Positions 6,478 to 38,524 of a stretch of 39,079 nucleotides of DNA are shown here, in pieces. The stretch spans positions 1 through 39,079 of the forward strand of contig DATBSK010000044.1 of NCBI GenBank assembly GCA_036559825.1. Direction: 5' to 3'. Positions within the stretch are counted from its first letter, which is position 1, and every line of letters begins with the position of its first letter. The translations under genes were made by a program, and so were the position numbers. Origin of the DNA: Acidimicrobiia bacterium (GTDB lineage: Bacteria > Actinomycetota > Acidimicrobiia > IMCC26256 > PALSA-555). The notes under the pieces are model-generated. The model saw only the letters and a list, made by a program, of their open reading frames with translations, was not told where the DNA came from and did not search any database.

Positions 6478-6924
6478 TCAGGCGAGCACCCACCGGGGGA
6501 GCGTGACGTCCTCGACCTGCTGGAACACGACCCGGACCGGCGCCCCGATGACGATCGTCGCCGGATCGACCTCGTTGATCGGACCGTCCGGTCGGGCAAG
6601 CAGGTTCCCCACCATCCGCAGCGTCGGATCCTCGTCGAGCGCCACGACGATCACGTTGTAGGGCGCGAGCTCGGCGTACGCCGGGAGCAGCGGCGGGTGC
6701 GGGACGACGAACGACCAGATCGTGGCCCGGCCCGATACCGGCACCCACTCGACCGCCGTGGAGCGGCAGCGCGCGCACATCGGACGAGGCGGGAACCGCG
6801 CCGTCTGACACGCGCCGCAGCGCTGGACGAGCAGCTCGTGGCGCGCGCACCCGGCCCAGAACTCCTCCGCGTCCTCGCTCTCGACGTCGGGGAGCAGGAA
6901 GCCCGTCGCCATCTCCGTCACCAT
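6478..6924 (-). CDS. DUF35 Zn-ribbon/OB-fold protein (partner of SCP-x-type thiolases)
   Basis: CGACQTARFPPRPMCARC (CxxC...CxxC rubredoxin-like ribbon) followed by an OB-fold segment ATIWSFVV...YNVIVVALDE. Confidence 0.9.
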   Translation of the reverse strand: MVTEMATGFLLPDVESEDAEEFWAGCARHELLVQRCGACQTARFPPRPMCARCRSTAVEWVPVSGRATIWSFVVPHPPLLPAYAELAPYNVIVVALDEDPTLRMVGNLLARPDGPINEVDPATIVIGAPVRVVFQQVEDVTLPRWVLA

Positions 6925-6992
6925 GGCTCGCTCACTGCGCCTCGGGGTACCCGAGCCGCGGCCGTTCGCTCACGTGGCGTCATCTGCGTCAC
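6918..6992 (-). repeat. Intergenic structured element (family copy E) forming a 24-codon bridging mini-ORF
   Basis: Sense sequence: GTGACGCAGATGACGCCACGTGAGCGAACGGCCGCGGCTCGGGTACCCCGAGGCGCAGTGAGCGAGCCATGGTGA. The GTG (6992-6990) overlaps the thiolase TGA (6991-6989). The TGA (6920-6918) overlaps the GTG directly after the DUF35 ATG. Hairpin CTCGGG-TAC-CCCGAG lies at 6941-6955. Confidence 0.6.
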
Positions 6993-8164
6993 CGCCTCAG
7001 TAAGAGAGCGCTCGTCGGCACACCCTCGCCGCTCGTGACGAGGCAGCAGTCGGCGCTCTCGACCTGACAGGTCGAGGTCCCACGCATCTGGCGGACACCT
7101 TCGAGCACCAGGTTGAAGCCGTGCACGTAGGCCTCGGACATCCCGCCGCCGCTCGTGTTCGTCGGCAGCCGGCCCTCGGGCCACTCGAGCGCACCGTCCT
7201 CGGTGAACGCCCCGCCGTCACCGCGGTCGCAGAACCCGTAGCCCTCGAGCGACAGCGGCACGAGCGGGCTGAACGCGTCGTAGATCTGAGCGACCTGCAC
7301 GTCCGCGGGTGCGAACTCCGAACCGTGCCAGAGGCGCCTCGCGGCCGCCCACGACGGTCCGGCGAGCGGATCCTCGTTGAAGTAGTTGATCATCGTCTGG
7401 TGCTGCGGAGGGATGCCTTGCGCGCCCGTGTGCACGTAGACGGGTGGGTGGGGCAGATCCGGCGCGCGCTCGGCAGGGACGAGGACGATCGCGAGCGCGC
7501 CGTCCGTCTCGAGACAGTTGTCGAAGAGACACAGCGGCTCGGAGATCCAGCGCGCCTCCAGGTAGTGCTCGCGCGTCAGCGGCTTCTCGTACATCGTGGC
7601 CGCCGGATTCTGGTTGGCATGCTTGCGAAACGCGAGTGCGACGTTCGCGAGGTGGTCGCGGGTCGCGCCGAACTCGTGGATGTACCGGCGGGTCAGCATC
7701 GCGACCTCGTCGACGGGTCGCAGCAGTCCCCAGGGCCGGCTCCACTGCCAGTGGTCGCTCAGCCGCTGCGGGACCTGCGCCCAGGGCCGGCTCGACTTCG
7801 CGGCACGCTTTCGCGCTCGCCACGCCACGGCGACGGTGCACTGCCCGGTCGCGACTCCCATCGCGGCTTGGAGCACGACGCCGCACCCCGCGCCGCCCCC
7901 GTAGCCGACCTGTGAGAAGAACGTGATGTCGCCGAGGCCGACGTTGCGCGCCACGTCGACCTCGCGGTTCGGCTCCATCGTGAACGACGCCAGCCCGTCG
8001 ACCTCCGCAGGCGCGATGCCCGCGTCGTCGAGCGCGGCGGAGATCGCCTGGCATGCGAGCGAGAGCTCGGTGTCGGGCAGCCCCTTGCCGAACGCGGTCT
8101 GGCCGATGCCGACGATCGCGACGCGGTCGCGCAGCACCGAGTCCGTGCGCGGCATCGTCACCAC
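6989..8164 (-). CDS. Thiolase-like lipid-transfer protein (SCP-x/Ltp type, non-acetoacetyl-CoA thiolase)
   Basis: VAIVGIGQTAFGK...ELSLACQAISAALDDAGIAPAEVDG and C-terminal NTSGGGMSEAYVHGFN are typical of Ltp-type thiolases paired with DUF35. The start is ambiguous: GTG 8164, GTG 8161 or ATG 8155. Confidence 0.9.
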   Translation of the reverse strand: MVTMPRTDSVLRDRVAIVGIGQTAFGKGLPDTELSLACQAISAALDDAGIAPAEVDGLASFTMEPNREVDVARNVGLGDITFFSQVGYGGGAGCGVVLQAAMGVATGQCTVAVAWRARKRAAKSSRPWAQVPQRLSDHWQWSRPWGLLRPVDEVAMLTRRYIHEFGATRDHLANVALAFRKHANQNPAATMYEKPLTREHYLEARWISEPLCLFDNCLETDGALAIVLVPAERAPDLPHPPVYVHTGAQGIPPQHQTMINYFNEDPLAGPSWAAARRLWHGSEFAPADVQVAQIYDAFSPLVPLSLEGYGFCDRGDGGAFTEDGALEWPEGRLPTNTSGGGMSEAYVHGFNLVLEGVRQMRGTSTCQVESADCCLVTSGEGVPTSALLLRR

Positions 8165-8311
8165 CCCGCCTTCATGGCGTCGCTCGCTGCGGCCCGGGAT
8201 ACCCGGTCCGCAGCCGCTTGCTCCGCACCCACCCTCACCAACCCGCCTTCATGGCGTCGCTCGCTGCGGCCCGGGATACCCGGTCCGCGGCCGCTTGCTC
8301 CGCACCCACCC
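8158..8311 (-). repeat. 2 x 77-bp tandem repeat (family copies B1 8235-8311 and B2 8158-8234), MIRU-like
   Basis: Sense unit: GGGTGGGTGCGGAGCAAGCGGC[C/T]GCGGACCGGGTATCCCGGGCCGCAGCGAGCGACGCCATGAAGGCGGG[T/G]TGGTGA. The two units are 75/77 identical. Each carries the hairpin GCGGACCGGG-TAT-CCCGGGCCGC (10-bp stem, 1 mismatch) and a 26-codon ORF. Confidence 0.9.
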
Positions 8312-9154
8312 TCACCACCCCTTGAACTCCGTCGGGCGGCGCTCGAGGAAGCTCGCGACACCCTCCTTGGAGTCCTCGGTGGCCGCGACCAGCTCCACCA
8401 GCAGGGACTCCTCCTCGAACAGCGTCGCCCGGTCCACGTCGAGCGATCGGTTGAGCAGCCGCTTCGCGAAGCCGATCGTCTTCGTCGGGCCCTGGGCCAG
8501 GCGGCCGGCCCACTCGCTCGCGGTCGCGCGCAGCTCCGCGGCCGGCACGACCTTGTTCACGAGTCCGATCCGCTCCGCATCGGCTGCGGCGAGGTCGTCG
8601 CCGAAGAAGACGAGCTCCTTCGCCCGCTGCAGACCGACGAGGCGGGGGAGCAGGTACGTCGGCCCGCCGTCCGGGATGAGCCCACGTCGGACGAAGACCT
8701 GGATGATGCGCGCATGGTCGGCGGCCACGACGAGGTCGGACGCGAGCACCATCGCCGCACCGCCACCCGCCGCGGTGCCGTTCAGCGCGCACAGGATCGG
8801 CTTCTCGCAGTCGAGCATCGCCCCGATCAGGCGCTGGATGCCGGTCCGGATCATCCGTGCCGCCTCACCCGAGACGCGCTCGGGCGCTCCCTCGGGCTTG
8901 GGCGGCGGGGCCGCCCGGCCCGTCCGCAGGTCCGCGCCGGTGCAGAAGTGCTTCTCGCCCGCAGCGGTGAGCACCACGGCGCGCACGTCGAACGAGGTGT
9001 TCGCGTCGCTCAGGTGCTCGATGATCCGGTTGCGCACGGTGGGCGTGATCGCGTTCCCCGCGTCGGGTCGGTTGAGCGTCAGCCAGAGCACCTGCTCGCG
9101 CAGCTCCGCGAGCAGCTCCTGGTCGACGTCGACCTCGTTCACCGTGTCGGTCAC
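8312..9154 (-). CDS. Enoyl-CoA hydratase/isomerase (crotonase) family protein
   Basis: LWLTLNRPDAGNAIT...VVLTAAGEKHFCTGADL...NGTAAGGGAAMVLASD is the crotonase fold signature. Confidence 0.92.
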   Translation of the reverse strand: MTDTVNEVDVDQELLAELREQVLWLTLNRPDAGNAITPTVRNRIIEHLSDANTSFDVRAVVLTAAGEKHFCTGADLRTGRAAPPPKPEGAPERVSGEAARMIRTGIQRLIGAMLDCEKPILCALNGTAAGGGAAMVLASDLVVAADHARIIQVFVRRGLIPDGGPTYLLPRLVGLQRAKELVFFGDDLAAADAERIGLVNKVVPAAELRATASEWAGRLAQGPTKTIGFAKRLLNRSLDVDRATLFEEESLLVELVAATEDSKEGVASFLERRPTEFKGW

Positions 9155-9161
9155 GGGGTGC

Positions 9162-11357
9162 TCACTTCCTCACCACGAGGGCGTCCAGGGCGATCGCGCC
9201 GCGGGGGCGGACGATCAGCGGGTTGATGTCCAGCTCGGCGAGCTGGACGTCGAAGTCGGGGCACGCGAGATCGATCGCGAGCCGTTGCACGTTCATGATC
9301 GCGTCGACGAGAGCGTCCACGTCGGGCCGAGACGCCCCGCGCACGCCCTGCAGCAGCGCTCGCCCCGCGAGATCGTCGAGCATCCGGCGGGCCTCGGCGC
9401 GCCCGAACGGTGGAACGCGGAACGTGACGTCGCCGAGGGCCTCGACGAGCACGCCACCCAGGCCGGTCATCACGACGGGACCGAACAGCGGGTCCTGCGA
9501 CACGCCCACGACCGCCTCGACGCCGCCGTCGACCTGCTCGCACACGAGGATCCCCTCCACCCGACCGCGCGTGCCGGCGGCGCGCCGAGCGCGCGTCATG
9601 AGCTCTTCGAACACCGCCCGCACCTCGCTCGCACCGTGCACACCGACGTGCACGAGACCGAGCTCGGTCTTGTGTGCGAGCTCCGGTCCGCTGGCCTTCA
9701 TCACGACGGGCCGACCGCGGGTGCCGGCCATCGAGCGCGCCGCCCGCGCGGCTTGCGCGGCGCTCGTGCACAGCACGTCGCGCGTCGTCGTCACGCCGTA
9801 GGCGCGCAGCAGCTGCTTCGACTCGTGCTCTGAGAGCGCGGCTCCGGGCTCCGCTCCGGCGAGGATGCGCCGCGCCGCGGACGCTGCTCCGGACGGCCGC
9901 CGCGGTGCGCTCGGGAACGGCGAGCGGTAGCGGCGGGCGAACTGCCAGTAATCGACGTACGCGCGGACCGCGCCGACGCAGTTGCCGAAGGTGCGGAACA
10001 CGGGCAGGCCGCCGTCGAGGAGGCGCCGGTAGTACGTGTCGTCCGTGCCGGGAGGCGATCCCCACACCACGAAGATCGGCTTGGACGTCGTGCGCGCGAC
10101 GTCGATGAGATCACGGGTGAACGGGTCGCTGAACATCGCAACCGCACCGGTGATGGGCACGACGAGGACGTCGATGTTGGGGTCGCCGAGGACGGCGTCG
10201 AGGATCTTGCGGCCCCGCTCGTCGGCGACCGGCGGACCGCCGCAGTCGATCGGGTTCGACACCCGCAGGTACTGCGGGATGAGGCCGTCGTGCAGCGTGC
10301 GCTGGGTCGCCGCGGTCAAGGGCGGCATCCGCAGGCCCGCAGCGGCCACGAGATCTGCCATGTGCGCGCCGGTCCCTCCGGAGATCGCGTAGACCGCGAT
10401 GCCTGGCCCGCGGGTGCCCCAGCTCGGCGGTGACGCGGGGCGCGTGCGCGCCAGCGCGGCCGGGATCTCGAGGAGCTCGTCGAGCCCGTCGACGCGGGTG
10501 ATGCCGTACTGGCGGAACGCCGCCGAGACGACGCGGTCGGAACCGGCGAGGTGCCCGGTGTGCGCCTTCGCCATCGAGGCACCGGCGTCGGTGCGCCCGA
10601 CCTTCACGCAGACGATCGGCACGCGCCGGCGGGCCGCGTGATCGGCCGCGAGGAGCAGCGAGCGGCCGTCCGTGAACCCTTCGACGTAGGCCGCGATGAC
10701 GCCGACCTCGGGCTGGTCCGAGAAGTAGCGGACGAAGTCGGCGAACTCGAGATCCACCTCGTTGCCCGTGGGCGCCCAGTGCGACAGCCGGATCCCGAGC
10801 TCCTGACCCTGGAACACGGGTCGACCCTGGTGGCCGCTCTGGGTCACGAGGGCGATCGCCGGCCCGCCGAGGTCGGTGCGAAAGTCCTCGAACGCGTTGA
10901 GGTTCGTGTTCGGACCGAGCAACCGCGTGTCGCCGTCGCGTGCCAGCTGCCGCAGCCGTGCTTCGAGCGCCTCTCCCTGAGCGCCCGACTCGCCGAAGCC
11001 GGCGGCGAAGATGACCGCGAAGCGGGCCTTGCGTGCCACGACGTCGGCGAACGCCGGCACCGCGTCCCCGGTCAGGATGACCGCGAGGTCGATGTCGCCC
11101 GGCACGTCGTCGACGGACGCGACACAGGGGACGCCGAGCACCTCGGTGCGCGTCGGGTGCACCGGCGTGAAGGTCGCGCCGTGGGCGTCCGCCCAGTCCT
11201 TGATGCGCCTGGTCATCGTCGCGTTCGGCTTGCGCGGCGCGTCCGAGGCGCCGATGACGGCGACCGAGCGCGGATGCAGGAACACGTCGAGATCGACGTC
11301 GCGCAGCGCGAGCGGCCGGCCCGTCACGTCGGTGCCCACCGGTGCCGCGCGTCCCAC
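9162..11357 (-). CDS. ADP-forming (NDP-forming) acyl-CoA synthetase, fused alpha/beta (CoA-binding + ligase-CoA + ATP-grasp)
   Basis: FLHPRSVAVIGASDAPRKP (CoA-binding start), ...GPNTNLNAF..., C-terminal ATP-grasp EHESKQLLRAYGV...VVMKASGPELAHKTELGLV. GTG 11357 is the longest start. GTG 11327 is an alternative. Confidence 0.9.
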   Translation of the reverse strand: MGRAAPVGTDVTGRPLALRDVDLDVFLHPRSVAVIGASDAPRKPNATMTRRIKDWADAHGATFTPVHPTRTEVLGVPCVASVDDVPGDIDLAVILTGDAVPAFADVVARKARFAVIFAAGFGESGAQGEALEARLRQLARDGDTRLLGPNTNLNAFEDFRTDLGGPAIALVTQSGHQGRPVFQGQELGIRLSHWAPTGNEVDLEFADFVRYFSDQPEVGVIAAYVEGFTDGRSLLLAADHAARRRVPIVCVKVGRTDAGASMAKAHTGHLAGSDRVVSAAFRQYGITRVDGLDELLEIPAALARTRPASPPSWGTRGPGIAVYAISGGTGAHMADLVAAAGLRMPPLTAATQRTLHDGLIPQYLRVSNPIDCGGPPVADERGRKILDAVLGDPNIDVLVVPITGAVAMFSDPFTRDLIDVARTTSKPIFVVWGSPPGTDDTYYRRLLDGGLPVFRTFGNCVGAVRAYVDYWQFARRYRSPFPSAPRRPSGAASAARRILAGAEPGAALSEHESKQLLRAYGVTTTRDVLCTSAAQAARAARSMAGTRGRPVVMKASGPELAHKTELGLVHVGVHGASEVRAVFEELMTRARRAAGTRGRVEGILVCEQVDGGVEAVVGVSQDPLFGPVVMTGLGGVLVEALGDVTFRVPPFGRAEARRMLDDLAGRALLQGVRGASRPDVDALVDAIMNVQRLAIDLACPDFDVQLAELDINPLIVRPRGAIALDALVVRK

Positions 11358-11366
11358 GGAGGGAGG

Positions 11367-12665
11367 ATGACACGGGCGTCAGGCGCGAGGCGACTCACCG
11401 GGCCCCAGGTGCTCCGGGGTACCGTCGGCGACGTGTCACCCCGAGGTGCTGCGGGCCGTGATCGCGTCGTCGTCGTCGGCGCGTCGCTCGCGGGGCTGCG
11501 CACGGTCGAGGAGCTGCGCCGGCTCGGCTACGACGGCGACGTCGCCGTGGTGGGCGCCGAGCCCCATGAGCCCTACGACCGACCGCCGCTGTCGAAGGAG
11601 GTGCTCGCCGGTGACGCCGAGGCAGGCGACACGGCGTTGCGACGCCAGCCGCTCGACGAGCTCGGCGCGAGCTGGCACCTCGGCCGGAGAGCGGAAGCGC
11701 TCGATGTCGGCGACCGGGCGGTCACGCTCGACGACGGCACGGTCCTCGCCGGGACGCGGGGGGTCGTCGTCGCGACGGGCGCGGTGCCGAGACCGCTCCC
11801 GGGCACGCCCGAGCTCGCGGGCATCCACCTGCTGCGCACGATCGACGACTGCCTCGCCATCCGCGCCGATCTCGACGCGCGACCAGGTCGCGTCGTCGTG
11901 GTGGGCGCCGGGTTCATCGGCGCCGAGGTCGCGGCCACGTGCCGGCAACGCCATCTGGACGTCACCGTCCTCGAGGCGCTGCCGTCGCCGATGGTGCGCG
12001 GCCTCGGCCCGGTGCTCGGGGACGTGCTCGCCGCGCTGCACCGTGACCACGGCGTCGATCTGCGCACCGGGGTGGGCGTCGAGGGGTTCGACGGCGGGAC
12101 TCGGGTCGAGCGCGTCCGCCTCGCCGACGGCAGCAACGTGGACGCCGACGTCGTCGTCGTCGGGGTCGGCGTCGTCCCCGCGACCGACTGGCTGGTCGCC
12201 TCAGGTCTCGAGCTCGACAACGGCGTCTGCTGCGACGAGACCCTCGTCGCCGCGCCCGGTGTCGTCGCGGCGGGGGACGTCTGCCGCTGGCCGAACCCCT
12301 TGTTCGACGGTGAGCGCATGCGACTCGAGCACTGGACGAACGCCGCCGAGCAGGGTGTCGCCGCGGCCGCGCGGCTGCTCGCAGGCGACGGCGGAGCAAC
12401 GGCCTACGCGCCCGTGCCCTTCGTGTGGTCCGACCAGTACGACCTGAAGATCCAGGTCGTCGGCCACGTCCGCGGTGACGACGACGTCGCGGTCGTCGAC
12501 GGTTCGTTGGAGGAGCGTCGCTTCGTCGCGGCGATCGGCCGCGCGGGGCGCCTCGTCGGTGCCGTGGGCTTCGGCCGTCCGCGTGTCGTCATGCAATACC
12601 GGCGGATGATCGCGGAGCGCACGTCGTGGGACACCGCGCTCTCACACGCGGGCGTCGCGTCATGA
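11367..12665 (+). CDS. FAD/NAD(P)-dependent ferredoxin reductase-type oxidoreductase
   Basis: RVVVVGASLAGLRTVEELRRLGYDG (GxGxxG), PYDRPPLSK, second dinucleotide fold VVVVGAGFIGAEVAA, C-terminal reductase_C dimerisation segment. ATG 11367 has GGAGGGAGG upstream. GTG 11433 is an alternative that would give a more typical N-terminus. Confidence 0.85.
   Translation: MTRASGARRLTGPQVLRGTVGDVSPRGAAGRDRVVVVGASLAGLRTVEELRRLGYDGDVAVVGAEPHEPYDRPPLSKEVLAGDAEAGDTALRRQPLDELGASWHLGRRAEALDVGDRAVTLDDGTVLAGTRGVVVATGAVPRPLPGTPELAGIHLLRTIDDCLAIRADLDARPGRVVVVGAGFIGAEVAATCRQRHLDVTVLEALPSPMVRGLGPVLGDVLAALHRDHGVDLRTGVGVEGFDGGTRVERVRLADGSNVDADVVVVGVGVVPATDWLVASGLELDNGVCCDETLVAAPGVVAAGDVCRWPNPLFDGERMRLEHWTNAAEQGVAAAARLLAGDGGATAYAPVPFVWSDQYDLKIQVVGHVRGDDDVAVVDGSLEERRFVAAIGRAGRLVGAVGFGRPRVVMQYRRMIAERTSWDTALSHAGVAS
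11368..11381. promoter_or_regulatory. Degenerate copy of the TGACG-N4-CGTCA motif (TGACACGGGCGTCA)
   Basis: Lies in the divergent spacer between the acyl-CoA synthetase and ferredoxin reductase genes, overlapping the candidate ATG 11367. Only 4-bp arms are perfect. Confidence 0.2.
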
Positions 12666-13333
12666 GCCACAGCCTGGTGGAGGTCTCCGACGCCGGGGAC
12701 GACGGTGTCGGCGTCCTGGTCCTGAACCGGCCCGACAAGAAGAACGCGCTCTCGATCGCGCTCCGTGACGCGATGAGCGACGCGCTCGAGAGCCTCGCAA
12801 AGGACGAGCGTCTGCGCGCGCTCGTCGTGACCGGAGCCGGCGACACGTTCTGTGCGGGGTTCGATCTCGACGAGTTCGCTGAGCCTGCGATCGCCGACGA
12901 GCTGTGGGCCTCCAGCGATCGCTGGCACCGCACCGTGCTCGAGTTCCCCTTGCCGACGGTCGCCGCCGTGAACGGAGGCGCCTACGGAGGCGGTTTCGAC
13001 CTCTCGGTGATGTGCACGCTGCGCGTGGCGGCCGACACCGCGCGGTTCGCGCACCCCGAGCACGCGTTCAGCCAGGTCGTCTACGCGCCGCTGCACGACC
13101 TGGTCGGAGGCTCGATCGCCCGCGATCTCGTGTTGACCGGGCGCCGCATCGACGCCCCGGAGGCGCAGCGGCTGGGCCTGGTGAACCGGGTCGTGCCGGC
13201 TTCCGAAGTCGTCGACGCGGCACGCGCGGTCGCCGCCGAGATCGGGGTTGCCCCGCGCGACGTGCTGCTGCAGATGACCGCGAAGATCCACCGGAGAGCG
13301 GGCATCACCCCGGACGCGACGCTCGACCTGTGA
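12662..13333 (+). CDS. Enoyl-CoA hydratase/isomerase family protein
   Basis: VLVLNRPDKKNALS...LVVTGAGDTFCAGFDL...NGGAYGGGFDLS. The ATG overlaps the upstream TGA (ATGA). Confidence 0.9.
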   Translation: MSHSLVEVSDAGDDGVGVLVLNRPDKKNALSIALRDAMSDALESLAKDERLRALVVTGAGDTFCAGFDLDEFAEPAIADELWASSDRWHRTVLEFPLPTVAAVNGGAYGGGFDLSVMCTLRVAADTARFAHPEHAFSQVVYAPLHDLVGGSIARDLVLTGRRIDAPEAQRLGLVNRVVPASEVVDAARAVAAEIGVAPRDVLLQMTAKIHRRAGITPDATLDL

Positions 13334-14529
13334 CCGACGAGCGGCTGGTGACGCCGCGGTTCGTGCTCGTCGTCGGCTCCGGCCTCGCGTACTTCATGGC
13401 GCTCGGCACGGTGCTGCCGGTGGTGCCGCAGTACGTCGAGCACCAGCTCGGTGGCGGGGACGTGAGCGTGGGCATCGCCGTCGGATCGCTGTTCGTGGGT
13501 GCCGTCTTGCTCCGCCCGTACGTCGGGCGTCTCGGCGACCGCGTCGGCCGGCGCGTGCTGATGATCTTCGGTGCCGCGATCGTGGCGGTCTCGATCGCGC
13601 TGTACGGCGCGGTCGCGTCGCTCGGCTTCCTCGTCGGCGCGCGCGTCCTGACGGGTGTCGGCGAGGCTGCGTTCTTCGTCGGCGCGGCGACGATGATCAC
13701 GGATCTCGCGCCGCCTCACCGTCGCGGCGAGGCCATCAGCTACTGGTCGGTCGCCGTGTACGGCGGACTCGCGTTCGGCCCGGTCGTCGGCGAGGCCGTG
13801 CGCGACCAGGAGGGGTTCGGCACGGCATGGGTGGTGGCCGCGCTCTTCGGAGCGCTCGCCACGGCGCTCGCCGTGTGCACGCGTGAGGTGCCGCGAGCAG
13901 AGACCGGCGACGCAGGTGCGCACGGCGGCGTGATCAACCGTGCCGCGATCGGCCCCGGTTCCGTGCTCTTCTCGGGGCTCATCGCGCTCGCCGCGTTCAC
14001 CGCGTTCATCCCCCTGTACGTCGACGAGATCGGGCTGCACAACGCCGACGTCGTCTTCCTCGAGTACGGCGGCATCGTGCTCGCCGTGCGGATCTTCGGC
14101 GCGCGCCTCCCCGACACGCTGGGCGGCCGCACCGCCGGCGGAGCCGCGCTCGCCGCCAGCGCCGTCGGGATGACCGTCATGGCGACCTGGGGCACGACCG
14201 CGGGGCTGCTCGTCGGGACCGCGTGCTTCGCGGTCGGAGCATCGCTGCTCTACCCGGCGCTGCTCCTCCTCGCGTTGGGCGGCGCGCCCGAGAGCGAGCG
14301 GGGATCGGTCGTCGGGACGTTCAGCGGCTTCTTCGACCTGTCGCAAGGGCTCGGCTCGGTCGTCGTCGGCGTGATGGCCGCGGCGACGAGCTATCAGGGA
14401 GCCTTCGCGCTCGGGGCCTGCTGCTCGGCGGCCGGGTTCGCGGGCCTGCGGCTGCACGCGTCGCGGCGAGAGCGCCAGGCGCAGGTGGAGGAAGCAGGGG
14501 CGCTCGCGAGCGAGCACCCGGGGCCGTGA
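13330..14529 (+). CDS. MFS transporter
   Basis: About 12 hydrophobic helices. MFS loop motif LRPYVGRLGDRVGRRVLM. The GTG overlaps the upstream TGA (GTGA). Confidence 0.88.
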   Translation: MTDERLVTPRFVLVVGSGLAYFMALGTVLPVVPQYVEHQLGGGDVSVGIAVGSLFVGAVLLRPYVGRLGDRVGRRVLMIFGAAIVAVSIALYGAVASLGFLVGARVLTGVGEAAFFVGAATMITDLAPPHRRGEAISYWSVAVYGGLAFGPVVGEAVRDQEGFGTAWVVAALFGALATALAVCTREVPRAETGDAGAHGGVINRAAIGPGSVLFSGLIALAAFTAFIPLYVDEIGLHNADVVFLEYGGIVLAVRIFGARLPDTLGGRTAGGAALAASAVGMTVMATWGTTAGLLVGTACFAVGASLLYPALLLLALGGAPESERGSVVGTFSGFFDLSQGLGSVVVGVMAAATSYQGAFALGACCSAAGFAGLRLHASRRERQAQVEEAGALASEHPGP

Positions 14530-15647
14530 CGTCGCTGCTGGCGACGAACGACTTCCCGCCGAAGGTCGGCGGCATCCAGACGTACCTCTACGAGATCTGG
14601 CGCCGCCTGCCGCCGGCGCAGACCTCCGTGCTGACGACGCCGTACCCGGGCGCCGCGGCATGGGACGCGGCGCAGCCGTTCCGCGTCACCCGTACCCGCG
14701 AGCGCTTCTTGCTGCCGACCGCGTCACTCGGGCGGCGGATCGACGCGCGGGCCCGGGAGCTGCGCGCCGACGTCGTCTTCCTCGACCCCATGCTCCCGCT
14801 CGGACTCGTCGGCCGCCGGCTGCGCGCCGCGCCGTACGTCGTCGTGACGCACGGCGCGGAGGTGACGGTGTACGGGTCGCTGCCCGGGTCCCGGTCGCGC
14901 GCGCGGACGGTGCTGCGCGGTGCGGCCGGGATCGTCGCCGCCGGTCGGTACCCCGCGGCGACCGCGGCACGTGTTGCCGGGCGCGAGCTGCCGACGTTGC
15001 TCGTCCCGCCGGGCGTCGATCCGTCGCGGTTCGTGCCCCTCGATGCTCCCGCGCGCCGGGCCGCGCGCCTCGCCTTCGGGCTCGACCCCGATGCGCCGCT
15101 CGTCGTCGGCGTGAGCCGTCTGGTCCCGCGCAAGGGATTCGATGTCCTCCTCGATGCCGTGGGCGGGCTCGACGGGGTGCAGGTCGCGATCGCCGGCGCC
15201 GGGAGGGACGAGCATCGGCTCCGGCGGCGGGCGCGCGGTCTCGGCCCCCGCGCGGCCGTGCTCGGGCGCGTCGACGACGACGACCTGCCGCGGCTCTACG
15301 GCGCCGCCGACGTGTTCGCGATGCTCTGCCGCGACCGGTGGCACGGGCTCGAGGCCGAGGGCTTCGGCATCGTGTTCGTCGAGGCCGCGGCGTGTGGCGT
15401 CCCCGCGATCGCGGGCCGCAGCGGCGGCGCCGACGAAGCCGTCCTCGACGGGGAGACCGGCTTCGTCGTGGAGCCGCGCGACGTGCGCTCGATCCGAGGC
15501 GCGATCGAGCGCCTCCTCTCGGACCCGGATCTGCGCGCGCGTCTGGGTGCCACCGCGCGCGAGCGCGTCGTGCGCGAGCTGTCGTACGACGTGCTCGCGG
15601 CGCGGGTCGCGCCACTGGCCGGAGGTGACCTCTCGGTGCTCACCTGA
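14526..15647 (+). CDS. GT4-family glycosyltransferase (PimB/MgtA-like alpha-mannosyltransferase type)
   Basis: VTSLLATNDFPPKVGGIQTYL start and the C-terminal EAEGFGIVFVEAAACGVPAIAGRSGGADEAV (E-x7-E retaining GT-B motif). GTGA overlap with the MFS stop. Confidence 0.9.
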   Translation: MTSLLATNDFPPKVGGIQTYLYEIWRRLPPAQTSVLTTPYPGAAAWDAAQPFRVTRTRERFLLPTASLGRRIDARARELRADVVFLDPMLPLGLVGRRLRAAPYVVVTHGAEVTVYGSLPGSRSRARTVLRGAAGIVAAGRYPAATAARVAGRELPTLLVPPGVDPSRFVPLDAPARRAARLAFGLDPDAPLVVGVSRLVPRKGFDVLLDAVGGLDGVQVAIAGAGRDEHRLRRRARGLGPRAAVLGRVDDDDLPRLYGAADVFAMLCRDRWHGLEAEGFGIVFVEAAACGVPAIAGRSGGADEAVLDGETGFVVEPRDVRSIRGAIERLLSDPDLRARLGATARERVVRELSYDVLAARVAPLAGGDLSVLT

Positions 15648-15687
15648 CCGAGCGCACGTACGCTCACGCGATGGAGCCGACGCGGCG

Positions 15688-16110
15688 ATGACCGGGCGCG
15701 GGATCATCGTGTCCTCGTGGGTCGGCGACCTCGTGTTCGCCGCCACGGCGATCCCGGCCGCGGCAGGCGTTCACGCGTTCGAAGGCGTCGCGCTCGCGAC
15801 TGCGCTCGCGCTGTTCTTCGCTTCGCTCCCGGCCTGGGCATGGGCGTTCGTGGTCGCGGCGTCGCGCAGCGCTCAGGGCGACGACATCGTCATCGGGAAC
15901 ATGTTCGGCTCGATCGGTGGGGCGACCCGCGACGTCCGCGTGCACCTGTTCGGCGCGCTCGCCGTGTGCATCGTCGTCGCGGTCGCGACGATCACCACCG
16001 AGCCTTTCGGCATCATGGTCCCGATGCTGCCGCTCGGGTTCGTCGGGCTCTGGGCCGCACGGCACGGGTCGTTCCCTCCCCGTCGCGAGACCGGGACGCG
16101 CCGGGCCTGA
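15688..16110 (+). CDS. Hypothetical integral membrane protein (about 140 aa, 4 predicted helices)
   Basis: MTGRGIIVSSWVGDLVFAATAIPAAAG...; strongly hydrophobic segments with GC3-rich codon usage. Inner ATG of track ORF 15142..16110. Confidence 0.6.
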   Translation: MTGRGIIVSSWVGDLVFAATAIPAAAGVHAFEGVALATALALFFASLPAWAWAFVVAASRSAQGDDIVIGNMFGSIGGATRDVRVHLFGALAVCIVVAVATITTEPFGIMVPMLPLGFVGLWAARHGSFPPRRETGTRRA

Positions 16111-16157
16111 GGCGCGTAGCGTTTGCGCCCACCACGCCGGCTTGGTTCGATGGACGG

Positions 16158-16592
16158 ATGGCCGACGAAGCCCACGAGCGCATCGCGGTGGCCGCGCCGC
16201 CGAGCCGGCTCTGGGAGATCGCGACCGACTACGAGCGTTATCCCTCGTGGGCCCGGGACGTCAAGCACGTCGAGGTGCTCGATCGGGACAGCCAGGGACG
16301 TGGCAAGCGGGTCGAGTACCGCGTCGCCGGATTGGGAAAGAGCATCCGCTACGTGCTCGAGTACGAGTACGAGGACGCACCGACGGCGTTCTCGTGGCAC
16401 TTCGTGGAAGGTGACTGGTTGCGCAAGCTGGACGGGCGGTACGGGTTCGAGCCCGAGGCTGACGGGACCCGCGTGACCTACGACCTCGTGGTCGATGTCT
16501 CCGCCCCGCTCCCGGGGCTGATCAAGCGCCGCGCCGCGAGCATGATCATGGGCACCGCCCTCAAGGAGCTGAAGAAGGAGGCGGAGCGATGA
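16158..16592 (+). CDS. SRPBCC (START/polyketide cyclase-dehydrase-like) family protein
   Basis: IAVAAPPSRLWEIATDYERYPSWARDVKHVEVL...WLRKLDGRYGFEP is a typical Polyketide_cyc2-type sequence, similar in layout to mycobacterial TB16.3. Confidence 0.85.
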   Translation: MADEAHERIAVAAPPSRLWEIATDYERYPSWARDVKHVEVLDRDSQGRGKRVEYRVAGLGKSIRYVLEYEYEDAPTAFSWHFVEGDWLRKLDGRYGFEPEADGTRVTYDLVVDVSAPLPGLIKRRAASMIMGTALKELKKEAER

Positions 16593-16726
16593 GCGAGCGT
16601 CTCGCGAGCCGGGTAACCCGGCTCGTAGCGAGCGGGGCAGGAGCCGTCGCTTGCGACGGCGACCCGGAAGGACAGCGGCAGGCGCGAAGCGCCCTGCGGC
16701 GAAGCCGCAAGGAGCGGGAAGGATGA
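16589..16726 (+). repeat. Intergenic structured element (family copy A, 134-bp insert) forming a 45-codon bridging ORF
   Basis: ATG 16589 overlaps the SRPBCC TGA (ATGA). TGA 16724-16726 overlaps the next gene's ATG 16723 (ATGA). Peptide: MSERLASRVTRLVASGAGAVACDGDPEGQRQARSALRRSRKEREG. Four stem-loops at 16605-16625, 16643-16660, 16681-16693 and 16696-16708. Confidence 0.6.
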
Positions 16727-17049
16727 GCGAGGCTCTCCGGAACGAGGAGTCCGGGTCGAGCGACGAGGGCAGCGACTACGCCGACCCGGACGCGCCCGGT
16801 CCCTCGATGCCACCACCGACCGCGGTCGAGTCGCTCGTCAACGCCCTGCTCGAAGCCGGACCCGAGGTCGCCGAGCACGTCGTCAAGGCCGCCCAGGAGC
16901 TGCTGCTCGCGGTGCAGGCGATCGTCGACGCGGCGGATCGCGCGGTGCAGGAGCAGCAGACGATCCGCGCGGACCGTACGGCAGACGAGGCAACCGCGGC
17001 TCGCTCCGAGGACGAGGCCGAGGTGCGTCACCTCGATCTCGCCGACTGA
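16723..17049 (+). CDS. Hypothetical acidic protein (108 aa)
   Basis: MSEALRNEESGSSDEGSDYADPD..., helical C-terminal half. AAGGAG lies 8 nt upstream. No recognisable domain. Confidence 0.6.
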   Translation: MSEALRNEESGSSDEGSDYADPDAPGPSMPPPTAVESLVNALLEAGPEVAEHVVKAAQELLLAVQAIVDAADRAVQEQQTIRADRTADEATAARSEDEAEVRHLDLAD

Positions 17050-17070
17050 CGCCCCCGGCCAGCATCGCGG

Positions 17071-18030
17071 GTGACCGGCGGCGCGTCGCCGACGATCGGC
17101 ATCGATCTCGGCGGCACCAACCTCCGCATCGGCGTCGTCGACGACAAGGGGCACATCGTCGACGAGCACCGCGTGCCTGCTCCCCACGAGCTCGGAGCGC
17201 TGGTCGACGCCGTACGCGCCGGCGTCGCCGAGCTCATGAGCCTCGGCGCGCACGCGCTCGGTATGGGCGCGGCGGGCATGATCGACGGTGAGGGGGTGGT
17301 GCGCTACGCACCCAACCTCCCGATGTTCCTCGACGCACCGTTGCGGGCACTCGTGCAGGAGGTCGTGGACATGCCCGTGACGGTGGACAACGACGCGAAC
17401 GTCGCCGCGTGGGGTGAGTTCTGCCACGGCGCGTTGCGCGGGCACCCGAACAGCCTGCTGATCACATTGGGCACCGGTGTCGGCGGTGGCGTCATCAGCA
17501 ACGGCCGTCTCCTCCGCGGCGCCCACGGCTTCGCCGCCGAGGTCGGTCACTGGCAGTTCGACCCCTCGGGACCGCGGTGCGCGTGTGGCGAGGTCGGGCA
17601 CTGGGAGGCGATGGCGTCGGGCACGGCGCTCGGGCGCATGGGACGGTCGCGCGCCGAAGCCGGCACCGCACCGGGGATCCTGGCGCGCGCCGGCGGCGAC
17701 GCCGATCGGGTCACGGGCGTCACGGTCGGCGACAGCGCGCAGGCGGGTGAGCCGGACGGCACCGAGGTGCTCGAGGAGTTCGCGCGAACCGTCGCGCTCG
17801 GGCTCGCGGGGCTCGCGAACATCCTCGATCCCGAGATGATCGTGGTCTCGGGTGGTCTCGTCGAGCTCGGCGACGTGCTGCTCGCCCCGATGCGCGCCGC
17901 GTTCCGCGGTCATCTCGAGGGCGCGTCGCACCGGCCCGAGGTGCCGATCGTCGCCGGGGAGCTCGGCGACGCTGCCGGCGTCGTGGGCGCGGCCGCGCTC
18001 GCGCGGGATCCGGCCGCGGCGCGCGCGTGA
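17071..18030 (+). CDS. glk: ROK-family glucokinase
   Basis: IGIDLGGTNLRIGVVD (ATPase phosphate-1), VDNDANVAAWGE, ROK zinc motif GHWQFDPSGPRCACGEVGHWE. Confidence 0.9.
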   Translation: MTGGASPTIGIDLGGTNLRIGVVDDKGHIVDEHRVPAPHELGALVDAVRAGVAELMSLGAHALGMGAAGMIDGEGVVRYAPNLPMFLDAPLRALVQEVVDMPVTVDNDANVAAWGEFCHGALRGHPNSLLITLGTGVGGGVISNGRLLRGAHGFAAEVGHWQFDPSGPRCACGEVGHWEAMASGTALGRMGRSRAEAGTAPGILARAGGDADRVTGVTVGDSAQAGEPDGTEVLEEFARTVALGLAGLANILDPEMIVVSGGLVELGDVLLAPMRAAFRGHLEGASHRPEVPIVAGELGDAAGVVGAAALARDPAAARA

Positions 18031-18845
18031 AGCTCGGGCTCGCGCTCCCGTCGTTCGTCGACGATCCCGCGATCCCACTCGCCGTCGCACACGCGGCGGA
18101 GGAATCCGGCCTCGATGCCGTCTTCGTCTACGACCACCTCTTCCGCACCGCGGCCGACGGCACGCGCAGGCCGGCGCTCGAAGGTGTGTCGCTCCTCGGC
18201 GCCGTCGCCGAGGCGACGACGACGATCGCGGTGGGCGCGCTCGTCTTCCGGGCGACGCTGCGGCCCGCGGCATCGCTCGCGGCCGCGATCGCCTCGGCGG
18301 ATCGGATCGCACCCGGGCGCGTCATCGCGGCGATCGGTGGGGGCGACGCTCAGAGTCGCGACGAGAACGAGTCGTTCGGTCTCCGGTTCGGATCGGCGAG
18401 CGATCGGATCGACGCCCTCGCGGCGGCGGTGCAGGAAGCGCGGCGCTCGACGCGCGTCCGCGTCTGGGTCGGCGGCAACTCCGAGCCGGTGCGCCGGCTC
18501 GCCTCGAACGCCGCGCACGGTTGGAACTCGTGGGGGAGCTCGCTCGCGCGCTTCGGCGAGTACGCGGCCGAGGTGCGGCCCGACTCGGGGGCGGCCTTCG
18601 AGTGCAGCTGGGGTGGTCTCGTCGTGCTCGCGGAGGACGACCGGCGGGCCGCGGAGAAGGCGGAGCGCCTCCGGGCGGTGCCCGGGACGCTCCTCGGTGG
18701 TCCGGACGCGCTCGCCCGGCAGCTGCGCAGCTACTCGGATGTCGGCGCGGACTGGGTCGTGATCGCGCCGGTCGACTCGCGCGATCCGGAGAACGCCCGG
18801 CTGCTCGGGGAGCGCGTCGCGCCGCTGATCAAGGATCGGCCGTGA
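18027..18845 (+). CDS. Luciferase-like monooxygenase (LLM) class oxidoreductase, probably F420-dependent
   Basis: MKLGLALPSF...ESGLDAVFVYDHL...IAVGALVFRATLRP is a typical LLM TIM-barrel start. GTGA overlap with the glk stop. Confidence 0.85.
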   Translation: MKLGLALPSFVDDPAIPLAVAHAAEESGLDAVFVYDHLFRTAADGTRRPALEGVSLLGAVAEATTTIAVGALVFRATLRPAASLAAAIASADRIAPGRVIAAIGGGDAQSRDENESFGLRFGSASDRIDALAAAVQEARRSTRVRVWVGGNSEPVRRLASNAAHGWNSWGSSLARFGEYAAEVRPDSGAAFECSWGGLVVLAEDDRRAAEKAERLRAVPGTLLGGPDALARQLRSYSDVGADWVVIAPVDSRDPENARLLGERVAPLIKDRP

Positions 18846-19377
18846 TGAAGAGCCCGTGGGCCTCGGCGGTGATCGCGTCACCGACGCGCATCGTCCCGAC
18901 GGTCGTGATGCGGCGGCCTTCGACGCGTGCGGTGTGGGCCTCGAGCGTCACCTCCGTGTGCAGCGGCGTCAGGCGCCGATAGCGGATGGTGAGCCTCCCG
19001 GTCACGGAGACGTGCCCGGCGGCGTTGGTCGCCATGCCGAGAGCCTCGTCGAACGCGAGGGCCACCCAGCCCCCGTGCACGCAGCCGGGCGGGCCCTCCG
19101 ACTCCAGGCCGAACTCGCCCCGACCGACGACGCCCTCGGGCGTCACGTCGTAGGAGAACGGGGGCGAGACGGGATTGACGGAGAAGCGGTGTCGCCAGCG
19201 GTCCGCCTCGGGTGTGCCGGAGCTCGGGGCGCGCTCGAGACGGTCGACGACCTGCTCGGTTGCGCGCGTCGCGGCCGCCAGCTCCTCGTCCGTCACGTCC
19301 GCGCGCAGCACCGCGTCGACGAGCCGCCGGGTCGCCGCTGCCAGCTGCTCGTGCTCCGAGCCGGGCGCTTGCCGCAT
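18829..19377 (-). CDS. PaaI-family hotdog thioesterase
   Basis: GPPGCVHGGWVALAFDEALGMA...VTGRLTIRYRRLTP is the PaaI/4HBT signature. Confidence 0.8.
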   Translation of the reverse strand: MRQAPGSEHEQLAAATRRLVDAVLRADVTDEELAAATRATEQVVDRLERAPSSGTPEADRWRHRFSVNPVSPPFSYDVTPEGVVGRGEFGLESEGPPGCVHGGWVALAFDEALGMATNAAGHVSVTGRLTIRYRRLTPLHTEVTLEAHTARVEGRRITTVGTMRVGDAITAEAHGLFITADP

Positions 19378-19386
19378 GTCGCGCGC

Positions 19387-20205: not shown

Positions 20206-20255
20206 CGGATCCTGCTCCCTCGCGGCGGTCGGGGACGGGCGATGTTAGAGGCAGG

Positions 20256-21011: not shown

Positions 21012-21054
21012 TGTCGGCGCGGTGCCGCGAGGTCGCGCTGGTACGGTGAGATCG

Positions 21055-23132: not shown

Positions 23133-23139
23133 TCGACGA

Positions 23140-24627: not shown

Positions 24628-24641
24628 GCGCGGGGATCAGG

Positions 24642-28102: not shown

Positions 28103-28107
28103 CGAAG

Positions 28108-28899: not shown

Positions 28900-29618
28900 G
28901 CCTGCTCGTCCCGGACACACCGGCGAGCGCGCTCGCCGTCTACGCCCATCCGGACGACCCCGAGATCTCGTCGGGAGGGACGCTCGCACGCTGGGCCGCC
29001 GCCGGCGCCCGCGTCTGGGTGCTCATCACGTCGCGCGGCGACAAGGGCACCGACGACCCCGACGCCGACCTCGAGGCGCTCGCGCACCGCCGCGTCGAGG
29101 AGACGGCCGTCTCGACGGCGGCGCTCGGGCTCGAGGACCACTTCCACCTCGAGCACGCGGACGGTGAGCTCGTCGAGGACCGGGATTTGCGCGGCGAGAT
29201 CGTGCGGTACGTCCGCCGGCTCCGGCCGGAGGTCGTCCTCTGCCCGGATCCGACCGCCGTGTTCTTCGGTGACTCGTACTTCAACCACCGTGACCACCGC
29301 GTCACGGGATGGGCGACGCTCGACGCGGTCGCGCCTGCAGCCGGCAACCCGCACTACTTCCCGGAGCACCGCGACGAGGGCCTCGACGTGCACCACGTCC
29401 GTAACGTCTTCCTGTCAGGGACGCTCGAACCCAACTGCTGGGTCGACATCACGGCGACGCTCGAGCAGAAGATCGACGCGCTCTTCTGTCACGCGAGCCA
29501 GCTCACGCACACCGGGGACTGGTTCCGCGAGTTCCTCAGGCAGAGCGCCGAGGAGGCAGGCCGCGCCGCAGGGGTGCGCTACGCCGAAGGATTCCGGCGT
29601 CTCACGTTCGGCGGCTAG
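28893..29618 (+). CDS. PIG-L/LmbE-family deacetylase
   Basis: ALAVYAHPDDPEISSGGTLA (AHPDD motif), ...NHRDHR... The start ATGGTGA overlaps the SDR stop. Confidence 0.88.
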   Translation: MVSLLVPDTPASALAVYAHPDDPEISSGGTLARWAAAGARVWVLITSRGDKGTDDPDADLEALAHRRVEETAVSTAALGLEDHFHLEHADGELVEDRDLRGEIVRYVRRLRPEVVLCPDPTAVFFGDSYFNHRDHRVTGWATLDAVAPAAGNPHYFPEHRDEGLDVHHVRNVFLSGTLEPNCWVDITATLEQKIDALFCHASQLTHTGDWFREFLRQSAEEAGRAAGVRYAEGFRRLTFGG

Positions 29619-29860
29619 GGGCGCGCACCGCCGCCCGTGCCCTTCGCCTTCCACTCCGACATCGCGCGCAGGACGAGGACGGCGACGATGCCCACGCCCG
29701 CGGCCGCGGCTGTCGATCCCAAGAGCGTCCCGAGCAGCTTCTCGCCCTCGCAGTCACCGGTGCAGCCGACATCCGCGAGCCCGTAGCCGATGATGCCGCC
29801 GAACAAACCGGCGACGACGACGCTGGTGAACGCGAGGAGGAACGCGGTGCGCGACGGCAT
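29615..29860 (-). CDS. Small membrane protein (81 aa, two predicted helices)
   Basis: MPSRTAFLLAFTSVVVAGLFGGIIGYGLADVGCTGDCEGEKLLGTLLGSTAAAAGVGIVAVLVL... An alternative GTG start lies at 29902. Confidence 0.5.
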   Translation of the reverse strand: MPSRTAFLLAFTSVVVAGLFGGIIGYGLADVGCTGDCEGEKLLGTLLGSTAAAAGVGIVAVLVLRAMSEWKAKGTGGGARP

Positions 29861-32753: not shown

Positions 32754-32776
32754 GGGGGCCTCGCGCCTGCGCGACA

Positions 32777-33169: not shown

Positions 33170-33178
33170 CGACGCCTG

Positions 33179-33628: not shown

Positions 33629-33641
33629 GAGATGAAGCGGA

Positions 33642-33666
33642 GGCGTGGCCGGACGGCCGGGACGCC
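33642..33666. terminator. GC hairpin between convergent genes
   Basis: GGCGT-GGCC-GGAC-GGCC-(GGG bulge)-ACGCC, between the stops at 33628 (+) and 33685 (-). Confidence 0.3.
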
Positions 33667-33684
33667 GGAGCGGAATCGACCCAG

Positions 33685-37109: not shown

Positions 37110-37111
37110 GA

Positions 37112-38089: not shown

Positions 38090-38101
38090 TGCTAGGGACT
38101 C

Positions 38102-38440
38102 GTGGGAACGCTCGCGTGCTCCACGGATGGCGACGGTAGCAGCGCGTCTCGACGGTACCGTGACCGCGTGCGGCGCCGACGCGGATCGTGGCTCGCCGCG
38201 CTCGCGGGCATCGCGGCGCGACCGTGGCTCTGGGGCGAAGCGGTCGCGGCGAGCGTGCGCATGGCGCGGCCGCGCTGGTGGCGGCGGCCCCCGTTCCTGC
38301 CCGTTCCGGACAGCTCGTACGTCGCCTTCCGCCTCGAGACCCAGTACGGCTCGGACGGCGCCCCGGCGCGGCGCGACCTGGTCACCTACCTCGAGTGGTG
38401 CCGCTCGCAGCGCGCCATCATGCGCCGGGCCCGCCGGTAG
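38102..38440 (+). CDS. Hypothetical Arg/Trp-rich small protein
   Basis: ...AARPWLWGEAVAASVRMARPRWWRRPPFLPVPDSSYVAFRLETQYG...LVTYLEWCR. The start is uncertain: GTG 38102 leaves only 12 bp to moxR, so GTG 38168 is more plausible. No recognisable domain. Confidence 0.45.
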   Translation: MGTLACSTDGDGSSASRRYRDRVRRRRGSWLAALAGIAARPWLWGEAVAASVRMARPRWWRRPPFLPVPDSSYVAFRLETQYGSDGAPARRDLVTYLEWCRSQRAIMRRARR

Positions 38441-38473
38441 CCCTCATTACACTCACCACGCAACGCACGCACC

Positions 38474-38524
38474 GGGAGCGAGCGTGGAGCGGGCCCGGGC
38501 ATCCCGGGCCCGGAGCGAGCGAGC
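38474..38524 (+). repeat. Intergenic structured element (family copy C) upstream of, or fused in frame to, the HNH gene
   Basis: GGGAGCGAGCGTGGAGC-GGGCCCGGG-CAT-CCCGGGCCC-GGAGCGAGCGAGC. Perfect 9-bp stem at 38491-38511, flanked by direct GAGCGAGCG boxes. Confidence 0.5.

Follow-up and report, generated by a model that had tools for sequence, protein, structure and literature searches.

The question raised by this stretch of Acidimicrobiia DNA—39,079 nucleotides (nt) of contig DATBSK010000044.1 from assembly GCA_036559825.1, here called the window—is why a compact genome should keep long gaps between genes that are read in the same direction. The window has a GC content of 72%. Its genes overlap by 4 nt, at ATGA or GTGA, eight times (12662-12665 included), and one further pair overlaps by 7 nt (ATGGTGA); an earlier first-pass annotation had counted 'at least nine' 4-nt overlaps. 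Exactly five co-directional spacers exceed 60 nt, and each of them holds a copy of one short repeat, giving six copies in total (A, B1, B2, C, D and E; Table 1), as the first-pass annotation had proposed and a corrected gene map has borne out. On that map a pyridine-nucleotide-disulphide oxidoreductase of ferredoxin-reductase type lies on the + strand at 11466-12665, so that 11340-11465 is a divergent spacer, and 29617-29860 is, by reading, a small gene on the minus strand. All six copies are in the sense orientation relative to the flanking genes, and none lies within coding sequence. This occupancy reads better when reversed: the long co-directional spacers would exist because the element inserted. 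On balance, the copies probably belong to a family of interspersed, non-autonomous repeats in Acidimicrobiia-type actinobacteria, which lodges at the gene junctions of operons.

The copies share a core of about 45 nt. It comprises a box, GAGCGA(G/A)CG, then 8-11 nt, a GC stem that closes with CGGG, a loop of 3 nt (TAT, TAC, TAA or CAT in the window), CCCG with the returning stem, and a second box, AG(C/T)GAGCG; in the family at large the core reads GAGCGAGCG, a 10-12 bp GC hairpin with the apex GGG-TAT-CCC, and then AGCGAGCG. Because the two boxes are direct repeats the element has polarity, and the shared core with direct rather than inverted boxes, seen at first pass, was confirmed by alignment of the spacers and by matching of the composite motif. 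The composite CGGGYANCCCG-N3-9-AGYGAGCG has 5 matches in the window compared with 0 in 100 dinucleotide-preserving shuffles, a control which the proposal of a family survives. The box GAGCGARCG alone has 8 matches where 6.0 are expected, and the AGYGAGCS box alone likewise occurs at chance frequency; since single boxes are not enriched, only the composite is informative. A profile hidden Markov model (HMM) built from 126 distinct copies and run on the window found nothing above noise beyond A-E, and no match in coding sequence.

The hairpin is kept by compensatory changes. In a set of 148 distinct cores, pairing is seen in 87.4% of the cells of the 11-pair stem, compared with 80.2 ± 0.5% for shuffled partners (0/500 reach the observed value) and 35-57% for slid partners, and changes on both sides of a pair number 113 against 41 ± 4.7 expected (0/500 shuffles). 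Stem position 5, for example, is C-G in 64 cores, G-C in 45 and T-A in 6, while positions 7-8 hold either Watson-Crick pairs or a tandem A·G/G·A mismatch. Covariation is used as the structural evidence because folding scores are modest: against a GC-rich background, single-sequence folding energy is unremarkable (z -0.5 to -3 relative to shuffles). Mini-hairpins of the GCGAAGC/GGCGAAGCC type recur as accessory modules in copies C (16640-16722) and D (22300-22345), and again in 86-nt units, described below, within the third hairpin (loci L005, L014 and L095), so that the family looks modular.

Table 1. Repeat copies of the window, their parts and neighbouring features (positions count from the first nucleotide of the window)
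Feature	Position	Strand	Description
Copy A	6918-6993	-	fills spacer 6925-6988
Copy A, motif match	6929-6953	-	profile E ~1e-10
Copy A, 5' box	6963-6971	-	
Copy A, apex	6943-6953	-	CGGGTACCCCG
Copy A, 3' box	6929-6936	-	AGTGAGCG
Copy A, mini-ORF	GTG 6992 to TGA 6918-6920	-	GTGA overlap with thiolase stop (6989-6991); TGA overlaps GTG 6921 and adjoins ATG 6924
Copy A, junction duplication	6993-6981 and 6922-6910	-	GGTGACGCAGATG and GGTGACGGAGATG; spans stop, Shine-Dalgarno and start
Copies B1 and B2	8158-8321	-	tandem 77-nt array, 2.1 units, 96% identity; fills spacer 8165-8311
B1 and B2, motif matches	8181-8205 and 8258-8282	-	profile E ~1e-10 each
B1 and B2, mini-ORFs	8315-8235 and 8238-8158	-	27 codons each; GTG overlaps preceding TGA; terminal TGA of the second overlaps thiolase start region (GTG 8164 or 8161, ATG 8155)
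B units, 3' end		-	AAGGCGGGTTGGTGA; repeats the 3' end (last codons) of the upstream enoyl-CoA hydratase gene, AAGGGGTGGTGA
Copy C	16589-16726	+	long form; fills spacer 16593-16722
Copy C, motif match	16610-16634	+	profile E ~1e-10
Copy C, layout	16589-16635 (first part)	+	ATGA-GCGAGCG and core hairpin, then more GC hairpins including GGCGAAGCC, Shine-Dalgarno-like AAGGAGCGGGAAGG, ATGA
Copy C, mini-ORF	ATG 16589 to TGA 16724-16726	+	45 codons; ATGA overlap with upstream stop; TGA in ATGA overlap with downstream start 16723
Copy C, junction duplication	both junctions	+	ATGAGCGAG
Copy D	22252-22367	+	split, degenerate; both boxes and half-stems present; fills spacer 22255-22364
Copy D, 5' half	22252-22279	+	TGA-GGCGAGCG-GCCGCGGCGCGGGTACC; profile match 22256-22279 only, E=0.09
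Copy D, apex insert		+	~63 nt with own hairpin GGCGTCGAG..GGCGAAGCC..CTCGACGCC
Copy D, 3' half	ends at start codon 22365	+	CCTAGCCGC-AGCGAGCC-GACCC-ATG
Copy E	38475-38537	+	motif match 38496-38521; profile match 38475-38523, E=4e-4; in spacer 38441-38537
Copy E, structure		+	10-bp GC stem, loop CAT, between GAGCGAGCG and GGAGCGAGCGAGC
Copy E, 3' part		+	purine-rich AAGGGGAG, then HNH gene start region at 38538
HNH endonuclease gene	38538-39047	+	169 aa, TTG start, directly 3' of copy E; HNH domain weakly matches IscB and Cas9 HNH models; frame open upstream to 37395
Unannotated 42-aa ORF	6275-6403	+	GAGGAGGAG ribosome-binding site; sigma-70-like promoter match 6171-6200
GC hairpin	~6431-6467		follows ORF 6275-6403; between convergent genes

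How the element sits between its neighbours is seen most clearly in copies A, B1, B2 and C. Each carries a short open reading frame (mini-ORF) that begins with a GTG or ATG overlapping the upstream stop codon (NTGA) and closes with a TGA overlapping the start that comes next. From one start to the following one the distance is 71, 77 or 134 nt, in every case a length of 3n-1. The insertions A, B and C are flanked by 9-13 nt duplicates of the original junction of stop, Shine-Dalgarno sequence and start. Copies D and E are without a bridging mini-ORF, E being of a 5'-leader type whose frame runs on into the downstream gene. The first-pass annotation had further described a fixed codon phase, in which the hairpin is read as R-V/A-x-R. 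This holds for A, B1, B2 and C and differs between subfamilies, since the 86-nt type and a copy at locus L082 read A-G-I-P-P and the start-abutting type A-G-Y-P-G. An open frame alone says little because the consensus core is without stops in all three sense frames; the first pass had already cautioned that such frames are common at this GC content.

A stricter measure is a tight chain that leads from the upstream stop, by way of one or more mini-ORFs, to the true downstream gene, with junction offsets of -4 to +8 nt counted from the first base of a stop to the next start. Such chains bridge 30/53 (57%) of the spacers holding a sense element, compared with 35/106 (33%) when the same spacers are put out of phase by a deletion of 1-2 nt (p = 0.006), 32/163 co-directional spacers that are free of the element (p = 1e-6) and 0/10 spacers holding an antisense element. 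A looser test, which accepted any long ORF, did no better than its control.

Comparison of orthologous junctions shows how lineages differ in these spacers. In most of 80 metagenomic relatives of the window thiolase (74-87% amino-acid identity), the junctions between enoyl-CoA hydratase and thiolase and between thiolase and the OB-fold gene overlap or are separated by less than 25 nt; an example of an empty site at the copy B junction is locus L115, ttcaagggttggTGAcgATGctc, with the empty-site sequence ttcaagggttggTGAcgATG. Window copies A and B are therefore lineage-specific insertions, and the presence/absence comparison called for at first pass gives clear differences. A minority of the junctions are filled by the same family: L127 and L150, L139 by the 86-nt type, and L172 by the 5' extension only. 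Unrelated tandem repeats occupy others, at the hydratase-thiolase junction in L132, L123, L120, L124 and L180, and also in L178 and L188. Those of L132 (2234-2472) comprise three ~78-nt units ending in ATGAGCATGG, those of L123 two 72-nt units, those of L180 13-nt repeats, and those of L178 and L188 are AT-rich. The two junctions have been hit repeatedly, and appear to be generally prone to insertions of a minisatellite-like type.

The family extends well beyond the window. When 185,579 species-representative genomes were scanned for the full composite motif, it was found, among the matches listed, in at least 112 genome stretches from at least 45 species-level metagenome-assembled genomes (MAGs) of 66-73% GC, with at least 9-14 sites each in single MAGs; viral contigs scanned for the motif gave no match. 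The labels of these matches, taken as deposited, are nearly all Acidimicrobiia, Actinomycetota or 'uncultured Actinomycetes'. Repeat-bearing MAG loci of 66-73% GC also carry the labels Bifidobacteriaceae, Bifidobacterium breve, Gemmatimonadales and Verrucomicrobiae (L015, L017, L032, L052, L053, L073, L077, L090, L092, L094, L095, L100, L111 and L112); such labels are probably wrong, or the contigs mis-binned. No synteny was found between the window and the motif-matched loci, of which there are at least 112, and an exact-protein look-up of the window thiolase returned no record. A look-up of the acyltransferase returned identical short contigs (a JGI contig and a Logan contig) in which spacer D is identical, and the sequence of copy D is likewise identical in the independent metagenome contig L001, the only same-population sequence, which covers copy D only. 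Rfam 15 covariance models gave 0 matches at gathering scores across the window, and two spacers searched at E up to 10 gave chance-level matches only (E >0.4, far below gathering scores). Full-text literature searches found no description of the repeat, and the family is apparently undescribed.

Three recurring forms can be distinguished when copies are sorted by eye and by simple rules. The first is an 86-nt unit, often tandem, of which copy C is a longer relative. Its 5' part consists of (A/G)TGA-GCGAGCG, the core hairpin, AGCGAGCG and a GGGCCCGAGCGGCCC hairpin, and its 3' part of a GGCGCC-N3-5-GGCGCC hairpin, (A/G)GGAGCGG, 4-6 nt and (A/G)TGA. This subfamily has built-in ends: after the TGA the NTG frame stays open for exactly 29 codons and, in most copies, closes at NTGA after the Shine-Dalgarno-like AGGAGCGG. 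In about half of the copies the unit's own TGA serves as the upstream stop and its own ATG as the downstream start. The second form has a 5' extension ending in GCTCGCCAGC, and places its 3' box 3-9 nt before a start codon in 8/16 co-directional sense copies; the starts abutted include those of tuf (L051), rplN (L048, L100, L104), nuoI (L052), leuD (L065, L110), leuA (L020), purD (L044) and acyl-CoA dehydrogenases (L015). The third consists of short units of 55-63 nt ending in GAGCGACCCATG, a 3' end shared by window copies A, B and D, and builds arrays of up to 8 units (L045, L075). Tandem arrays, which are head-to-tail, occur at 27/128 census sites with periods of ~55-117 nt.

Some housekeeping junctions recur across MAGs, namely rpsQ-rplN, leuC-leuD (L065/L110), the position before nuoI (L052/L007) and that before tuf (L051). 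At rpsQ-rplN (L048:7895-7941, L100:1982-2028 and L104:3670-3715), cores agree at 46/47 and 44/47 positions, against 80-89% identity in the coding sequence of rplN next to them, a comparison biased by motif-based selection of the loci. A bridging mini-ORF of 39, 35 and 23 codons is present in the three MAGs despite differing upstream parts, and two of the three run exactly from ATGA to ATGA.

Where the repeat resides was assessed in a census of 868 kb of the matches listed, of which 84% is coding by a simple scorer of GC content at third codon positions (GC3). Although about 84% of the sequence is coding, 157/173 copies (~91%) are intergenic, and of the 16 hits scored as 'coding' most fall in gene starts that were extended too far. 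One of them is a genuine in-frame insertion of a full core, at L082:2012-2057 within a gene (1724-2425) for a NarL/LuxR-type response regulator, where it adds ~20 residues (GASVREAGIPPSSERPMLAGDVG) immediately ahead of GYLLKDR, a conserved motif. When copies are collapsed to 128 sites, those in co-directional spacers number 58 sense and 12 antisense (83% sense; binomial p = 2e-8), the antisense copies lying a few nt past a stop codon. The outcome that the first-pass annotation had named as fatal to its proposal, a core as frequent inside genes as outside and in both orientations, was therefore not seen. Several of its absolute statements hold for the window and become tendencies in the family. 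The orientation, gene-sense in all six window copies, is a bias and not a rule. The core, absent from the convergent and divergent spacers of the window, fills 18/100 divergent and 8/34 convergent spacers of at least 60 nt in the census, and the co-directional spacers of this size, all filled in the window, are filled at 69/239 even in loci selected for containing a hit.

If the repeat is an interspersed element of operon junctions, as preferred here, insertion would create a spacer instead of filling one, and insertions would be retained at sites where duplication of the junction has left the stop of the upstream gene, and the Shine-Dalgarno sequence and start of the downstream gene, undamaged. 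Junction duplication, together with open sense frames in the element, would keep both neighbouring genes whole. Ribosomes terminating on the upstream gene may start again on the mini-ORF and, from there, on the downstream gene, so that coupling would be preserved in an overlap-rich genome and the insertion tolerated; the sense orientation would be favoured since it is stop-free and permits such re-initiation. The hairpin with its (GAGC)n boxes is a likely recognition module for a trans-acting copying machinery. In transcripts the hairpin is probably also a stable structure between cistrons, a role for which some of the copies preceding housekeeping genes may have been recruited.

Several observations weigh against this account. 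The Pfam and NCBIfam scans found no transposase, integrase or reverse transcriptase among the called genes of the window, in agreement with the first-pass statement that no transposase is encoded there; the called genes have ordinary metabolic or housekeeping annotations, and a few ORFs are left without a match. Antisense copies make up 12/70 of the co-directional sites. The tight chain is present in only 57% of sense spacers and its phase control still reaches 33%, because GC-rich sequence abounds in open frames, and the array periods of 55, 57, 58, 63, 84, 94 and 117 nt that also occur are not all 3n-1. Across the family, the lengths of flanking repeats are close to a permuted null, bar a few cases of 12-25 nt, so that junction duplication cannot be claimed family-wide; the weak signal fits duplications that are old, decayed or variable in length. 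Loci were picked by exact motif match, which inflates the conservation of the core by ascertainment, and the GC3 scorer of the census made at least one error in the window. The GC3-based caller mis-called the ferredoxin-reductase-type gene at 11466-12665 and chose antisense ORFs. The AT skew at 12-16 kb (12000-16000) is strongly negative, -0.18 to -0.22, and differs from the rest of the window.

Among other explanations, it is possible, if doubtful, that the element is mainly a selected cis-acting RNA signal, acting in mRNA stability, processing or relative translation, with dispersal secondary; this is compatible with an interspersed family, and the hairpin and GAGCGAGCG boxes would then be sites at which a conserved host factor binds or cuts. 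Sense-biased orientation and a covarying hairpin speak for such a signal, as do a TAT loop and two boxes that are nearly invariant across at least 45 MAGs, the position of copies 3-9 nt before the starts of tuf, rplN, nuoI, leuD, leuA and purD at junctions shared in several MAGs, and the close identity of the rpsQ-rplN cores relative to rplN itself. Most orthologous junctions, however, are without the element, which is found in unrelated gene contexts, and both the arrays of up to 8 units and the in-frame copy within the L082 gene look like expansion, not regulation. The selection of loci by exact core biases the conservation comparison, no Rfam family matches, and folding energies lie just 0.5-3 standard deviations below shuffles. 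The repeat might also represent a new kind of mobile element, a translational-coupling cassette (stop codon, bridging ORF, ribosome-binding site and start codon) copied to stop/start junctions by dedicated strand-specific machinery that would recognise the hairpin and (GAGC)n boxes, with some copies co-opted. This is an unlikely combination, in which copying could be RNA-templated or the work of a single-strand nuclease of Rep-like type, and copies such as those ahead of rplN, tuf, nuoI and leuD would since serve as intercistronic expression signals across the class.

Rather improbable is a REP-like substrate of a single-strand DNA enzyme (HUH/Y1, RAYT or Rep-like), in which the hairpin and (GAGC)n boxes would form a binding and nicking site and orientation would mark the replication strand. 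GAGC tetranucleotide repeats are the Rep-binding element of the terminal repeat of adeno-associated virus (AAV), and CAGTGAGCGAGCGA, the 3' box of the family (for example at window 6925-6938), is presumably identical to the part of the AAV2 terminal repeat at its (GAGC)n Rep-binding element; the match is probably a coincidence in a simple repeat, but offers a precedent of protein recognition for such boxes. The occurrence of GAGCGAGCG in passages of AAV Rep-binding-site papers (PMC2900306) is a lead and not a test. A GC hairpin beside direct GAGC repeats, strand polarity and a lack of terminal inverted repeats do suit single-strand mechanisms, but replication direction cannot account for copies that, within 39 kb, lie on both strands and always follow the strand of their local genes; this argues for a polarity related to transcription or translation. 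Moreover, IS200/IS605-type insertion makes no target duplication, in contrast to the 9-13 nt duplications of window copies, there is no HUH gene in the window, no GTAG head is conserved, and one close inverted pair was found among the 128 sites. Very improbable is a reading in which the mini-ORFs encode real small proteins and the repeat reflects a conserved peptide, even with start codons, the Shine-Dalgarno-like AGGAGCGG and a constant 29 codons in the 86-nt type. The candidate was rejected since one core is read in all three frames by different subfamilies and nucleotide changes in the stem compensate for each other; the frame also changes between successive tandem units, and copies exist in antisense and in divergent and convergent spacers. 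Scarcely credible is the view that GC-rich hairpins merely arose by chance at 72% GC, with no family behind them. The single boxes are at chance frequency and stop-free frames are common at such GC, but the composite-motif count against shuffles, profile E values of ~1e-10 and hundreds of near-identical copies in other genomes have already refuted it.

Two further candidates were set aside. The HNH gene beside copy E was considered as a mobiliser, and no homologue was found near other copies in ~1.3 Mb of loci. An intrinsic terminator was considered for the hairpin, in which the 3' arm is followed by AGCGAGCG with no T-run; a terminator scan of 6000-24000 gave none at the copies.

Comparable short operon repeats, the mycobacterial interspersed repetitive units (MIRUs), have largely been treated as a feature of Mycobacterium. 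Another family, apparently unrelated but following the same logic—occupying stop/start junctions, keeping the frame open and regenerating overlaps—suggests a general route by which small repeats persist in compact, overlap-rich genomes, here spread across a poorly studied and mostly uncultured class of actinobacteria. The family offers many natural pairs of filled and empty sites for testing termination-reinitiation coupling through a mini-ORF, its tandem arrays are candidate strain markers in metagenomes, and its copies account for errors of gene calling, among them starts placed within repeats and small ORFs that are not real.

The repeat may be set beside several known systems. Like REP, BIME and REPIN sequences it is a short, GC-rich, imperfect palindrome, intergenic and present in many copies, with possible intercistronic mRNA hairpins. 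REP/REPIN identity was rejected because there is no GTAG head, an inverted pair within 300 nt occurs at 1/128 sites, and copies are single or in head-to-tail arrays; the strong sense polarity, the stop and start codons inside the element and the lack of a RAYT in the window are further differences. Rickettsia palindromic elements (RPEs) are 100-150 bp long and mostly intragenic. The present repeat resembles them in being open in reading frames and able to sit in frame within a gene (L082), whereas its intragenic cases are rare exceptions. Integron attC sites are, similarly, polar imperfect palindromes in one orientation between co-directional genes. They were rejected as an identity since the boxes here are direct, with no inverse core and core sites (RYYYAAC/GTTRRRY), no integrase is found in the window, and the flanking genes are not cassettes but syntenic metabolic or housekeeping genes with empty orthologous junctions.

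The closest parallel is with MIRUs. In the account of Supply et al. (1997) given in the review by Delihas (2011; PMC3184786), MIRUs are units of 40-100 bp in the spacers of polycistronic operons; the ends of their small ORFs overlap the flanking stop and start codons, no transposase is encoded, filled and empty sites differ among relatives, and short direct (tetranucleotide) repeats flank the filled sites. The present family shares the modest size and high copy number (a core of ~45 nt, units of ~55-117 nt, 6 copies in the 39 kb of the window) and the operon-internal position in gene orientation (5 window spacers; 58 sense and 12 antisense sites). It also shares mini-ORFs overlapping the flanking stop and start (A, B1/B2 and C; 30/53 sense spacers against 20-33% in controls), filled and empty orthologous sites with direct repeats at A, B and C, and tandem arrays, including the 77-nt period of the window. 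The first-pass likening of a polar, operon-internal family to MIRUs is thus supported by four shared features of organisation and by the enrichment of bridging mini-ORFs. What differs from MIRUs is a covarying hairpin between direct GAGCGAGCG boxes, which defines the family; the stop, Shine-Dalgarno-like site and start built into the 86-nt subfamily; junction duplications of 9-13 nt, and up to 25 nt, in place of tetranucleotides; the start-abutting form, together with copies before start codons in divergent spacers and antisense copies after stop codons; and a class-wide spread among Acidimicrobiia-type MAGs in place of a Mycobacterium host. No sequence homology between the two is known. As judged from their descriptions, the family is MIRU-like by organisation and is not filed as a MIRU by descent.

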